Virus genome (UHGV): UHGV-0338520
Reading direction: 5' to 3' (one strand)
Length of the DNA: 10,574 nucleotides
Origin: a virus
The notes under the pieces: model-generated
Told to the model about the DNA's origin: nothing
The model's database searches: none
The model's input: only the letters and a program-made list of their open reading frames with translations
Position numbers and translations under genes: made by a program
Shown here: positions 3,558-10,574 of the stretch, piece by piece
How the letters are laid out: every line of letters starts with the position of its first letter
How positions within the stretch are numbered: position 1 is the stretch's first letter

Positions 3558-3588
3558 GGCTGGTGGGTGTTAGGGGCACCCACCAGCC
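3558..3588. repeat. Perfect 12-bp inverted repeat (stem-loop) between the small ORF and the methyltransferase gene
   Basis: ggctggtgggtg (3558-3569), loop ttagggg, cacccaccagcc (3577-3588). No U-tract follows on either strand, so it is not a canonical intrinsic terminator. Confidence 0.7.
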
Positions 3589-3680
3589 ATCTGCTCATGC
3601 GTTGGGTTCACAAGCAAACCTCAGGCCCACTGCTTTGCGCAAAAGCAGAATGAGCCTATCAGAGACAGGCTTAATGAACC

Positions 3681-4779: not shown

Positions 4780-4855
4780 GGCCCTTTAGCTCAGTGGTGA
4801 GAGCGAGCGACTCATAATCGCCAGGTCGCTGGTTCAAATCCAGCAAGGGCCACCA
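4780..4855 (+). tRNA. tRNA with anticodon CAT; ileX/ileZ-like tRNA-Ile2 (lysidine) by similarity, formally Met by anticodon
   Basis: Cloverleaf read by eye: acceptor ggccctt/aagggcc, D-stem gctc/gagc, anticodon loop ctCATaa (CAT at 4813-4815), T-arm gctgg-ttcaaat-ccagc, discriminator A and encoded CCA. Closely resembles E. coli ileX as recalled. Confidence 0.85.
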
Positions 4856-4957: not shown

Positions 4958-5034
4958 GCGTTGTTAGCTCAGCCGGACAGAGCAATTGCCTTCTAAGCAA
5001 TCGGTCACTGGTTCGAATCCAGTACAACGCGCCA
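4958..5034 (+). tRNA. tRNA-Arg (anticodon TCT, reads AGA/AGG)
   Basis: Acceptor gcgttgt/acaacgc, D-stem gctc/gagc, anticodon stem attgc/gcaat with loop ctTCTaa, T-arm cactg-gttcgaatc-cagt, discriminator G and encoded CCA. Confidence 0.88.
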
Positions 5035-5498: not shown

Positions 5499-5889
5499 AT
5501 ACATATCTGGATTATCACCTGTTACGGTAAAAAGTGATAGCTTACTGTTTTTGTGAATGGCATTGCAGCAGCCGGATAATGTCAGTGCTGGCTGACGGTG
5601 TGCTGGTGGCGGGTGTGGTGGTTGTTGCTTTCCCGTTGCTGAAAAAGAAAACGCCAGACTGTTAGCCGGGTATCAGTTAGCGGGAGAAATTTTTAAATAC
5701 TTCACAATTCAGGCGGTTGACTGTTGTCTGGTTTGCGGGGAGTTTGTTAAAAGAAACTGGCATGGTGAATCCCCCTGTGCGGAGGGGCAATCAGCGAGTA
5801 GGTATATGGGATAATCGCGGATTCAGGTGCTGGTACTGAATTCACCGGGAGGCACCCGGCACCATGCAATGGCACATAGCGCCACTCTC

Positions 5890-5918
5890 CAGCCCCTCTC
5901 CGGAGGGGCTGTTTATAT
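5890..5918 (+). terminator. Rho-independent terminator inside the cargo island
   Basis: Perfect 9-bp stem cagcccctc (5890-5898), loop tccg, gaggggctg (5903-5911), followed by tttatattgatttt. Confidence 0.6.
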
Positions 5919-5945
5919 TGATTTTGTCAGATGTGAGTAAACTCC

Positions 5946-8184: not shown

Positions 8185-8718
8185 ATGAACACCAAAATCA
8201 AATACGGCCTGTCGGCTGCCGTTCTGGCGCTGATTGCCGCTGGTGCGCCTGCGCCTGACATTCTCGACCAGTTTCTGGATGAAAAGGAAGGTAACCACAC
8301 CACGGCATACCGTGATGGTGCGGGTATCTGGACCATCTGCCGCGGTGCCATCCTGGTGGATGGCAAACCTGTCGTTCCGGGCATGAAGTTGTCGAAGGAA
8401 AAATGCGACCGGGTTAACGCCATTGAGCGTGATAAGGCGCTGGCATGGGTGGAGAAAAACATCAGAGTGCCATTGAGTGAACCCCAGAAAGCGGGGATCG
8501 CGTCATTCTGTCCGTACAACATTGGTCCCGGTAAGTGTTTCCCGTCGACGTTTTATAAACGAATTAATGCAGGTGATCGCAGGGGAGCGTGTGAGGCGAT
8601 TCGCTGGTGGATTAAGGACGGTGGCAGAGACTGCCGTATTCGTTCAAACAACTGCTACGGTCAGGTATCCCGTCGTGACCAGGAGAGCGCGCTGGCGTGC
8701 TGGGGAATCGACAGATAA
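8185..8718 (+). CDS. SAR endolysin (T4-lysozyme-like muramidase, R21-type)
   Basis: 177 aa. N-terminal Gly/Ala-rich weakly hydrophobic SAR segment GLSAAVLALIAAGAPAP. Catalytic triad spacing E35-x8-D44-x5-T50 (EGNHTTAYRDGAGIWT), identical in position to R21 as recalled. C-terminal lysozyme-like region. Confidence 0.9.
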   Translation: MNTKIKYGLSAAVLALIAAGAPAPDILDQFLDEKEGNHTTAYRDGAGIWTICRGAILVDGKPVVPGMKLSKEKCDRVNAIERDKALAWVEKNIRVPLSEPQKAGIASFCPYNIGPGKCFPSTFYKRINAGDRRGACEAIRWWIKDGGRDCRIRSNNCYGQVSRRDQESALACWGIDR

Positions 8719-9016: not shown

Positions 9017-9484
9017 ATGAACCGCGTACTGTGCGTGGTCATCATTGCCCTGCTGGTGGCCTGTGGTGCGCTTAGTCTGGGGCTGAATCATTACCGTGAT
9101 AACGCCATTACCTACAAAGCCCAGCGCGACAAAAATGTCAGAGAACTGAAGCTGGCGAACGCGGCAATTACTGACATGCAGATGCGTCAGCGTGATGTTG
9201 CTGCGCTCGATGCAAAATACACGAAGGAGTTAGCTGATGCGAAAGCTGAAAATGAAACTCTTCGCGCTGACGTTGCCGCTGGTCGTAAGCGCCTGCGTAT
9301 CAACGCCACCTGTCCAGGTCCCGTGCGTGAAGCCACCGGCACCGCCCGCGTGGATAATGCAACCGGCCCCCAACTGGCAGACACCGTTACACGGGATTAT
9401 TTCACCCTCAGAGAGCGGCTGATGACGATGCAGAAGCAACTGGAAGGGGCGCAGGAATATATCCGTACTCAGTGCCTGAAATAA
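9017..9484 (+). CDS. Rz: Rz i-spanin
   Basis: 155 aa. [56 protein letters not shown]... is near-identical to lambda Rz as recalled. N-terminal transmembrane segment. Confidence 0.92.
9237..9422 (+). CDS. Rz1: Rz1 o-spanin lipoprotein, embedded in Rz in the +1 frame
   Basis: [25 protein letters not shown]...[32 protein letters not shown] matches lambda Rz1 as recalled. Lipobox LVVSAC and proline-rich region. Confidence 0.88.
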
Positions 9485-10107
9485 GTTTTGTTGATGCGCC
9501 GTATCGTCGCTGTATTCCCTCATTAACAGAGACCGCAGCCCGACAGGGAGACTCCTCTGCGCGAGTGTGCGGGGATAATCAAAAACGATACACACCGGGG
9601 TTTACCGCGTTAACGGAGCGCGGCGTTGTCCCCTCATAGTCGCCTGTCCGGTGCGATGGTGGAAGAAACCGGATGTTTATCACTATTAATTGATGACACA
9701 GAAATGGATTCATTGAATTTCAGCACGTTTTTGTATTCGTGTTATTGAACATCTGTTTATTTTACTTTTAACATATTGATAATAAAAAGAGCTGTAAATC
9801 TTTAGATGAGTCGATTTTGTCCGGGGAAGTTCAAGTGGATTTTATGCTGACGGTTTCTGGTGTGGTTATCCTGTCCATTGCTTATACTGCAGATAAATAT
9901 GGCTGCCATTTGTTATCACGTATTGGCGCTTATTGTTCGTTGATGCTGATTTTCTCGTCGCTTTTTTTTGAGTAAGTTATATTAATTATAACAAATAATT
10001 TTCTGTGTTATTTTTTCAGGCTATCCCGTCAGAGGGGAAGCCTGTACTGCCGGGGAGCGAATGGAAAACTGATGTGTCCGGTAACTGCGTGTTCTGTGAA
10101 CACCATG

Positions 10108-10293
10108 TTACTTAATTATGTAATTCATACCCGAACTCTCTGTTGACAGCCTTCTTCTGCAGGCTTCAATAACCCACGCTGAAAAGTTTCCTGAACCTTT
10201 CAGATCAAGAGCGATGTTAATTTGTTCAATCATCTGGTTTGGAAATCGGATGTTGCGGGTTGTTGTTCTGCGGGTTCTGTTCTTTGATGACAT
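10108..10293 (-). CDS. Ribbon-helix-helix (Arc/Mnt-like) DNA-binding protein, 61 aa
   Basis: RNIRFPNQMIEQINIALDLKGSGNFSAWVIEACRRRL fits the Arc/Mnt pattern (NxRxP...A...GxSxNSxI...V) as recalled. GGGGA RBS-like sequence and a GATAAT -10-like hexamer upstream on the minus strand. Confidence 0.6.
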   Translation of the reverse strand: MSSKNRTRRTTTRNIRFPNQMIEQINIALDLKGSGNFSAWVIEACRRRLSTESSGMNYIIK

Positions 10294-10367
10294 AATGTTT
10301 CCCCATATTCAGTGTTGCTGATTTGTATTATCTGAAGTTGCTTTTACGTTAATTTGATGCAGATCAA

Positions 10368-10457
10368 TTAATACGATACCTGCGTCATAATTGATTGTTC
10401 GCTGCATAGCGGTCCGACCCCGTACTGCTCACGCAGCTTATCCAGCAGTGGCATCAT
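10368..10457 (-). pseudogene. Truncated IS3-family OrfB (first about 20 codons, then unrelated sequence and a stop)
   Basis: The -1 frame relative to OrfA gives [20 protein letters not shown] then QSIMTQVSY*. An intact OrfB would be about 290 aa. Confidence 0.5.
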
Positions 10458-10574
10458 TTTTTCCAGAGGCGGTCGAACTCCGCCTTCGCAAAATAAGCGG
10501 AAGCCTGGCGAAGGATATCGTTACTGCGGCGCAGTTCACGATTTTCACGTTCCAGCTCTTTCAGACGCTGACGT
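10395..10574 (-). mobile_element. Truncated IS3-family insertion sequence (IS629/IS1203-like from memory); continues beyond the window end
   Basis: Minus-strand translation ...[39 protein letters not shown] is a typical IS3-family OrfA leucine-zipper C-terminus. An overlapping -1 frame starts [20 protein letters not shown] (OrfB start) but hits a stop after 29 codons, so similarity appears to end near 10395-10398. Confidence 0.6.
10454..10574 (-). CDS. IS3-family transposase OrfA, C-terminal 39 codons (partial; start lies beyond the window)
   Basis: Open minus-strand frame from the window edge to the stop at plus 10454-10456, with an A6 slippery-like run immediately before the stop and the overlapping OrfB ATG. 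Confidence 0.6.

Follow-up and report, generated by a model that had tools for sequence, protein, structure and literature searches.

We identified the open reading frame (ORF) at 10108-10293 on the minus strand of the virus genome UHGV-0338520, a stretch of 10,574 nt referred to here as the window, as a real protein gene of the YlcI/YnfO (DUF3950) family, which is common in lambdoid prophages. The explanation that we consider probable is that this gene is the local copy of a proposed autoregulated repressor of the ribbon-helix-helix (RHH) type, placed at the junction between the lysis and packaging modules, and that the insertion sequence (IS) beside it removed no gene. In this window ylcI is an ordinary, already annotated component of a lambdoid prophage, and it appears anomalous because the window ends inside an IS remnant and because the lambda homologue is often left unannotated. 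For the window itself the result is of little importance, and the deletion of a partner gene that had been supposed did not occur. The DUF3950 family is uncharacterised even in phage lambda, and what is new here is a concrete, testable mechanistic hypothesis for it.

The 61-aa product (MSSKNRTRRTTTRNIRFPNQMIEQINIALDLKGSGNFSAWVIEACRRRLSTESSGMNYIIK, as given in the ORF list) matches the Pfam family DUF3950 (PF13132; 67.5 bits against a cut-off of 25, E 9.2e-19), the NCBIfam model NF041551 'YlcI/YnfO family protein' (35.2 bits against a cut-off of 30) and PHROG 949 (phrog_949, E 9e-32), to which PHROG assigns no function. Its exact sequence is found on ~1000 contigs as RefSeq protein WP_001329960.1, also named YlcI/YnfO. 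The 912-bp stretch between the lysis gene Rz and the IS (9485-10396) is 100% identical in many E. coli chromosomes, and 4344 of 5426 complete genomes contain a match to part of it. Selection acts at the level of the protein: across 21 distinct alleles from lambdoid loci (codons 1-50), variable sites fall 9/5/30 on the three codon positions, and synonymous and non-synonymous codon differences stand at 2569:824. This pattern, together with conserved homologues in other genera, identifies the ORF as a real protein gene, as an earlier reading of the window by a model without database searches (the sequence-only reading) had been convinced it was; the profile search which that reading proposed produced the DUF3950 match, and its concern that the ORF might not be conserved is answered by the homologues. 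These are stand-alone proteins of 51-77 aa with 33-55% identity, all from Enterobacterales (Serratia, Xenorhabdus, Pectobacterium, Brenneria, Klebsiella, Enterobacter, Pantoea, Tatumella, Proteus, Rahnella and Gilliamella), and an exhaustive HMMER search of 1.84 billion representatives returned 106 clusters only, many of them lambda DNA in reads full of errors. The conserved core comprises residues 1 to ~50, with a basic N-terminal arm, the IRF strand and two helices. Among 19 diverse members I15, R16, F37 and V41 are invariant and F17, W40, A44 and C45 nearly so; the family core reads K-[NG]-IRFP-h-x-LIE-x-I ... NFSAWV-[IL]-[DE]-AC.

The position of ylcI is fixed on one side and variable on the other. 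We compared 89 lambdoid loci (80 from viral contigs and 9 others), the 80 being those most similar to the query, so that the proportions given below are not population frequencies. In 88/89 loci ylcI diverges from the head of the packaging module, on the opposite strand to the late genes, and the window shares this placement between lysis/cargo and packaging genes through locus L001, which is identical to it over 9485-10574. An exact lambda cosN 12-mer lies upstream, with a Nu1-type small terminase subunit (TerS) on the opposite strand, in 68 of the 89; the distance from this 12-mer down to the ylcI start codon is 211-219 bp in 67 loci, and 632 bp in the 2 that contain an IS remnant. Another 19 are without the lambda cosN, and there an HNH endonuclease gene starts 41 bp away in the divergent direction, followed by a Terminase_2 (P27-type) TerS and then by the large terminase subunit (TerL). 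That leaves the linear lambda genome, which terminates at cos. The downstream side holds an AT-rich segment of the window type in 47 loci, a DUF1398 gene in 22 and other sequences in 19; the DUF1398 gene is co-oriented and starts ~20-70 bp past the ylcI stop (43 bp in L035). Beyond about residue 50 the protein has a tail that differs according to the downstream module, and this therefore points to a recombination joint at the end of the conserved core, and the window-type tail and AT-rich segment are seen beside both packaging types. ylcI is a marker of the boundary between the lysis/cargo region and the packaging module, whichever the terminase type. Intact homologous loci thus show a constant neighbour, the packaging-module head; the suspicion that they might reveal a well-characterised module holds for the place of the gene in the lysis/cos/terminase junction but not for its own function, which is uncharacterised.

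Phage lambda carries the gene as well. Its homologue (81% identity) occupies the complement of 48110-48304 in the 48,503-bp record, and several lambda-type records leave it unannotated; its start codon and the right cohesive end are 199 nt apart, which contradicts the contrast that had been drawn with lambda, in which this stretch would replace bor and the cos/terminase region. The order in a re-annotated lambda derivative is S, R, Rz/Rz1, bor(-), a 411-bp gene(-), a 207-bp gene(+), the YlcI-family ORF(-) and the genome end at cos, and that in the K-12 prophage DLP12 is rzpD, borD(-), ybcV(-), ybcW(+), ylcI(-), 388 bp and nohD(+). Over the core, K-12 YlcI (DLP12) and the lambda ORF are 77-81% identical to the window protein and match the same Pfam and NCBIfam models, and they share its place and orientation in the series Rz, cargo genes, ylcI(-), ~390 bp holding cos, and a Nu1 homologue. 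In contrast, the C-terminal tail and the downstream cargo are not those of the window, which has an AT-rich segment and a 46-aa ORF where lambda and DLP12 have ybcW/p79, the DUF1398 gene and bor; in the window, an IS3-family remnant also parts ylcI from cos. YnfO (Qin) is paired with YlcI by family name only, and YlcI, YnfO and the lambda ORF are all functionally uncharacterised relatives. Lambda orf64 lies between Q and S. The orf64 of CRISPR interference and two-hybrid papers is promoter-proximal in the PR' late transcript; it was taken as a different ORF and those results were not used. The only hint of expression comes from K-12, for which ybcW-ylcI appears in a published list of convergent gene pairs whose transcripts overlap.

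By megablast, the similarity to IS3-family transposase genes sets in at window position 10397, within 2 bp of the truncated IS that the sequence-only reading had placed at 10395, and an ALIL frameshift pseudoknot lies at 10400-10499 on the minus strand (Rfam RF01497, 75.9 bits). By its OrfA sequence the element may be of the IS629/IS1203 kind. The remnant is 445 bp long in L001 (L001 6913-7357), where it is followed by a lambda-type cos (cosQ/cosN), terS, terL, a head-tail joining gene and a portal gene. An intact locus, L002, matches the 912-bp stretch at 99.9% identity and has ylcI(-), then ~400 bp with GGGCGGCGACCT, the lambda cosN cohesive-end sequence, and then terS. In the alignment of L001 with L002 the remnant is inserted between ...CATAATTGATT and CACATGTTGTG..., with the loss of ~24 bp of phage intergenic DNA (ATTTCTCGTGGTTTGATGGCGTA[CA]). 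The IS event removed no gene, and the cos and terminase region follows closely after the end of the window. Two suppositions fall with this: that a partner of the RHH gene was deleted by the IS event, which took intergenic DNA only and left cos, terS and terL intact past the remnant, and that the stretch stands in place of cos and terminase, both of which directly follow the remnant in genomes identical over 9485-10574.

YlcI is likely an RHH DNA-binding protein. An AlphaFold2 (AF2) model from a 13-sequence alignment predicts residues to 18 as extended, followed by helices at 19-32 and 37-55 (core predicted local distance difference test, pLDDT, 87-91); this is the strand-helix-helix topology of the RHH superfamily, in a monomer whose strand cannot pair. 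Among the 19 diverse members, 7 weakly matched a HicB-like PHROG and single members matched three 'Arc-like repressor' PHROGs (E 8e-5 to 0.03), and the predicted topology and these remote matches are together consistent with an RHH fold. Foldseek found nothing significant in the PDB, its top entry being HP0222, which we take to be an RHH protein, and sequence searches of the solved structures in the PDB found no match with either the single protein (phmmer) or a 9-sequence profile. The sequence-only reading had called the protein an RHH regulator of the Arc/Mnt type; the first half of this is probably right but the second is not. The 19 members matched no Pfam family besides DUF3950 even at E <= 10, and hhalign gave Arc a probability of 3.3% and Mnt of 0.7%, against hand-entered Arc and Mnt sequences, with the register as expected (NIRFP against NLRWP). 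Judged from its sequence, YlcI lies outside the Arc and Mnt families. It also differs from P22 Arc, which is co-transcribed with ant, in standing alone and in having no Pfam Arc match, and from the RHH antitoxins (TacA/DUF1778 and the HicB C-terminal domain) in having neither a toxin partner nor a second operon gene.

The case for repression comes from satellites. Most of the distant homologues are encoded in islands beside tRNA genes. These islands have genes for an integrase, AlpA and a primase-helicase, and often an antirepressor gene of the AntA type as well; an integrase-AlpA-primase island has the architecture of a phage-inducible chromosomal island (PICI) or a P4-like satellite. There the DUF3950 gene is the sole gene on its strand and is divergent from an operon running to the primase gene, the first gene of which is small and weakly Icd-like (E 1.7e-4, below the curated cut-off). 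Within 200 bp upstream of the DUF3950 gene, 23 satellite loci hold three 12-bp GTG-N6-CAC sites, spaced 23 bp and 46-47 bp apart in nearly all of them, and this triple-site arrangement beat 200/200 shuffles in each of three loci tested. In our reading, site 1 would lie just past the likely -10 of the divergent promoter, site 2 would abut a conserved GTCAA(C/G), which on the other strand is the putative TTGAC -35 of the divergent operon, and site 3 would begin right after the TATA of TATAGT, the putative -10 of the DUF3950 gene.

The three sites co-vary within a satellite locus and differ among loci, and they do so with the protein. Proteins with ..STTKG are paired with GTGCA[CT]A[AT]ACAC (nine loci, four named genera), those with ..SAKKN with GTGTGCGCACA (Klebsiella and Rahnella), and those with ..SAKKH with GTGTG[AT]ACCCAC (Xenorhabdus and Pantoea). 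Across the 23 loci, a Mantel test ties the sequence of the sites to the 7 residues that precede the IRF strand (r = 0.71, p <= 2e-4), and the correlation persists given the rest of the protein (partial r 0.69) or the spacer DNA (0.61); the rest of the protein given the arm yields r = 0.08, which is not significant. Covariation of arm and site is expected if the N-terminal arm and strand of an RHH repressor read the operator. Some factor co-evolves with the satellite sites, most likely the DUF3950 N-terminal arm, and the whole indicates that the satellite homologues form a Mnt-like family of repressors. The satellites offer a testable case of repressor-operator co-evolution, in which 7 pre-strand residues track a 12-bp site; if this is true, DUF3950 gains a function and a control element of the satellite replication operon is identified.

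P22 Mnt is transcribed divergently from the arc-ant operon that it represses, its operator overlaps the divergent promoters, and N-terminal residues set its specificity. The satellite homologues of YlcI share with it the divergent layout, the arm-to-site correlation and an AntA-type gene nearby, and in both cases the protein is small with an RHH-type core, which for YlcI is predicted. In contrast, no relationship to Mnt can be detected in the sequence, the satellites carry three sites of 12 bp instead of one operator, and the window and lambda are without an ant gene, their divergent neighbour being cos and the terminase genes. The P22 immI analogy proposed for this gene therefore fits the satellite homologues, with their divergent operon and three co-varying sites, but finds no ant gene in the window or the intact locus, AntA-type genes being confined to the neighbourhood of the satellite homologues. 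P1 immI (icd/ant) provides a second comparison, as the satellite operon starts with a structured leader and the weakly Icd-like gene and has an AntA-type gene nearby. The comparison is not applicable to the window itself, Rfam found no C4-type RNA in the satellites, and P1 immI is not known to have an RHH repressor.

The satellite leader holds a conserved GC-rich stem-loop between the divergent promoter and the Icd-like gene (L049 ~3560-3640, with equivalent leaders in L046-L082); an example on the ylcI-sense strand is GCCTCGA...TCGAGGC with a T-rich run behind it. This stem-loop may act as a regulatory leader or belong to a small RNA. An Rfam search of the satellite leaders gave no C4-like or other known RNA, only a sub-threshold symR at 28.5 bits.

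By extension from the satellites, the YlcI of the window would be an autoregulated repressor, expressed from a weak promoter of its own and independently of the late operon. Its gene is transcribed against that operon, with the 5' end facing cos or the first packaging gene. The protein would pair through the IRF strand and read DNA with this strand and the basic arm before it. In the satellites, its homologues would repress from the three 12-bp sites overlapping their own -10 and the promoter of the divergent operon from the icd-like gene to the primase gene. In the window prophage the IS3-family remnant separates ylcI and 103 bp of upstream DNA from cos. The analysis shows to which family the gene belongs, its constant place, selection on the protein, the make-up of the IS event and the arm-site covariation of the satellites; the RHH fold, DNA binding, repression and any lambdoid target are inferred.

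The DNA upstream of ylcI in the window has a -10-like GATAAT at 10332 to 10327 (minus strand) but lacks a good -35. Positions 10349-10395 form an element with dyad symmetry, which contains TAATTTGAT (10350-10358), ATCAATTA (10363-10370) and TAATTGAT (10388-10395), with arms of 13 nt at 10363-10375 and 10383-10395; of the three exact copies of TAATTGAT in the window, two lie in this element as an inverted pair. We regard it as a candidate operator. In loci of the cos-lambda type, the 200 bp between ylcI and cosN, the dyad included, hardly vary, even if the loci have different cosB and Nu1. The search for operator-like inverted repeats that had been proposed succeeded in part, in that a dyad was found, but one that is absent from HNH-type phages with the same protein arm.

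Several results weigh against extending the repressor from satellites to lambdoid phages. The absence of the dyad from the HNH-type phages means that it may belong to the cos side and not to YlcI. When lambdoid upstream regions were compared, no operator was identified for the lambdoid proteins, and no operator or motif common to the cos-type and HNH-type regions was found. The satellite triple-site spacing was not significant against shuffles in lambdoid upstream DNA; lambda has its best triple at the satellite offsets (-99, -76, -31), with a score no better than shuffles. A consensus promoter scan found none for ylcI in 10294-10396, and RNA folding of the upstream region was likewise no better than shuffles. 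In the satellites, the link between arm and site is correlative. Additionally, the literature searched reports no function for ylcI, ynfO or DUF3950, and according to a review, expression in lambda lysogens is confined to cI, rexAB, lom and bor.

Alternatively, YlcI may be a packaging-linked factor acting on cos or terminase, through binding near cos, modulation of TerS or a packaging conflict between phage and satellite; we give this a minor chance. The gene adjoins the head of the packaging module for either terminase type, and the 200 bp between ylcI and cosN are almost invariant, as described above. Furthermore, three distinct 129-aa proteins (P0193, P0248 and P0251) join the DUF3950 core to the N-terminal helix-turn-helix of a Terminase_2 (P27-type) TerS. 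Such a fusion gene, L005 4714-5103(+), is located in a satellite, between an integrase with a 69-aa gene in the AlpA position and the primase operon, and has the same GTGCACAAACAC sites upstream. However, ylcI is transcribed opposite to the packaging genes, and the satellite homologues stand between alpA/antA and the primase operon, away from packaging genes and with a promoter/operator architecture. In vitro, lambda packaging is not known to require anything beyond terminase, IHF, gpFI and proheads; PADLOC gave no match, and the fixed position may merely mark the boundary of the cargo region. A transcription regulator is favoured over a packaging role by the way in which ylcI is oriented and by the operator architecture of the satellites. 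The Listeria TerI system and PICI Rpp were considered as analogues and set aside, as neither involves the DUF3950 family.

In and around ylcI in the window we annotated the following features:
8185-8718, lysozyme gene of the lysis region (Pfam)
9017-9484, plus strand, Rz (i-spanin), end of the lysis cassette, transcribed opposite to ylcI (PF03245, E 4e-51)
9237-9422, Rz1 (o-spanin), embedded in Rz (PF06085, E 1e-19)
9472-9639, plus strand, 55-aa ORF overlapping the Rz stop codon (phrog_6954 'Rz-like spanin', E 1.4e-16)
9485-9639, segment of normal GC content 3' of Rz, outside the AT-rich block (composition)
9640-10107, AT-rich cargo segment downstream of ylcI, 33-45% GC (composition)
9835-9975, plus strand, 46-aa hydrophobic ORF, RefSeq hypothetical protein WP_000347013.1 (RefSeq coding sequence)
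10089-10103, weak terminator-like hairpin in the AT-rich segment
10108-10293, minus strand, ylcI/ynfO-family gene, DUF3950, 61 aa (ORF list and family models)
10294-10396, minus strand, surviving ylcI upstream region, 103 bp (sequence)
10397-10574, minus strand, IS3-family remnant with left end and orfA, running past the window end (Rfam, megablast)

With a similarly small chance, ylcI could be the first gene and regulator of a leftward cargo operon, continuing with the DUF1398 gene ydfO/ybcV and bor. Here the cargo would have been exchanged, and the orphan regulator may control the AT-rich segment or nothing. A same-strand DUF1398 gene does follow in 22/89 loci, fused DUF3950-DUF1398 gene calls exist, and lambda and DLP12 have a DUF1398 gene and bor further on along the same strand; the mosaic joint lies at about codon 50, so that the tail travels with the cargo. 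However, the downstream neighbour varies (47, 22 and 19 of the 89 loci), the opposite-strand p79/ybcW interrupts the unit in lambda and DLP12, the satellite homologues are without such cargo, and the 46-aa ORF of the window is on the other strand. This explanation fits the 22 loci but not the window.

A wider role was also considered, to which we assign a slightly lower chance still: that the YlcI family are the specificity-determining repressors of widespread Enterobacterales satellites, with the lambdoid homologue engaged in cross-talk with satellites or in silencing terminase in lysogens. If this were true, terminase would be silenced in lysogens so that the chromosomal cos stays uncut, or phage and satellite would communicate through this family, and a regulatory gene of lambda, 200 bp from cos, would have been overlooked.

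It is very unlikely that YlcI is the antitoxin of a toxin-antitoxin pair whose toxin was lost, or is encoded in the AT-rich segment as the 46-aa ORF or as an RNA. The window has no co-oriented ORF beside or overlapping ylcI that could be a partner, and none is conserved across the family, in which the downstream neighbour varies; the 46-aa ORF is convergent and not co-transcribed, and is absent from lambda, DLP12 and the satellites. The IS event, which took ~24 bp, lies on the other side of the gene, and PADLOC gave no match. The antitoxin role suggested by the sequence-only reading finds no conserved toxin. Finally, the idea that the ORF is not a protein gene and is conserved through constraint on the DNA near cos, which draws on a 200-bp flank toward cos as conserved as the ORF in cos-lambda-type phages and on the lambda-type records without annotation, has a negligible chance and is refuted by the third-position variation with its 3:1 excess of synonymous over non-synonymous changes, by the same core beside an unrelated HNH-type packaging module with different flanks, and by homologues of 33-55% identity in other genera without a nearby cos.

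At the level of the sequence, most of the earlier observation holds. Rz directly precedes the stretch, as had been noted. GC content is 53-54% until ~9640 and then 33-45% to ~10400, and therefore the stretch described as ~900 bp of AT-rich DNA is so in its right three quarters but not in its first 155 bp (9485-9639). The RHH ORF had been called the only convincing gene there, but RefSeq has the 46-aa ORF as a second. This ORF has two hydrophobic stretches, converges on ylcI and is present on at least 1000 contigs; neither it nor the AT-rich segment has a Pfam, PHROG or PADLOC match, and the 55-aa ORF at 9472-9639 is without a Pfam match. In an error-ridden metagenomic fused gene call (P0123) the GC-normal segment after Rz directly adjoins ylcI, which suggests that the AT-rich segment 9640-10107 is an inserted block of cargo. 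A promoter-like site at 9798-9770 (minus strand) is directed toward Rz, away from the 46-aa ORF. Within the ylcI coding region, a plus-strand terminator-like hairpin with a T-rich run lies at 10253-10273 (the codons for RTRRTTTRN). It could halt rightward, late-direction transcripts that are not antiterminated ahead of the terminase genes; equally, it may be a by-product of the coding sequence.

A few homologues fall outside the contexts above. In Pantoea and Erwinia (L059, L061, L063, L064 and L083-L085) the DUF3950 gene comes directly after two tandem genes of ~550-590 aa, which by eye look like ABC transporters, and in Tatumella (L047, L051, L054 and L074) it lies between long ORFs that by eye resemble transporter and metabolic genes. 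These loci are neither a prophage packaging junction nor a satellite regulatory region.

Lambda DNA also turned up among the apparent homologues. Contigs of ~3.5 kb with the lambda ylcI region (90% protein identity) occur in assemblies of Kitasatospora, Cohnella, Brevibacillus, Arcanobacterium, Pedobacter and others (L009, L011, L013, L016, L020, L024, L026, L034, L066 and further loci), and the same DNA, in frameshifted form, makes up many library 'representatives'. Both the ~3.5-kb contigs and the error-ridden reads were left out of the homologue set. Such contigs in unrelated assemblies look like leftover lambda control DNA; a 3.6-kb lambda amplicon serves as a nanopore control strand.

Further from ylcI, the late-region leader upstream of the lysis genes carries one copy of the small RNA STnc100 at 5731-5920(+) (132 bits) and two tRNA genes at 4780-4852 and 4958-5031 (+), a combination that is typical for the late regions of Stx-type lambdoid prophages.

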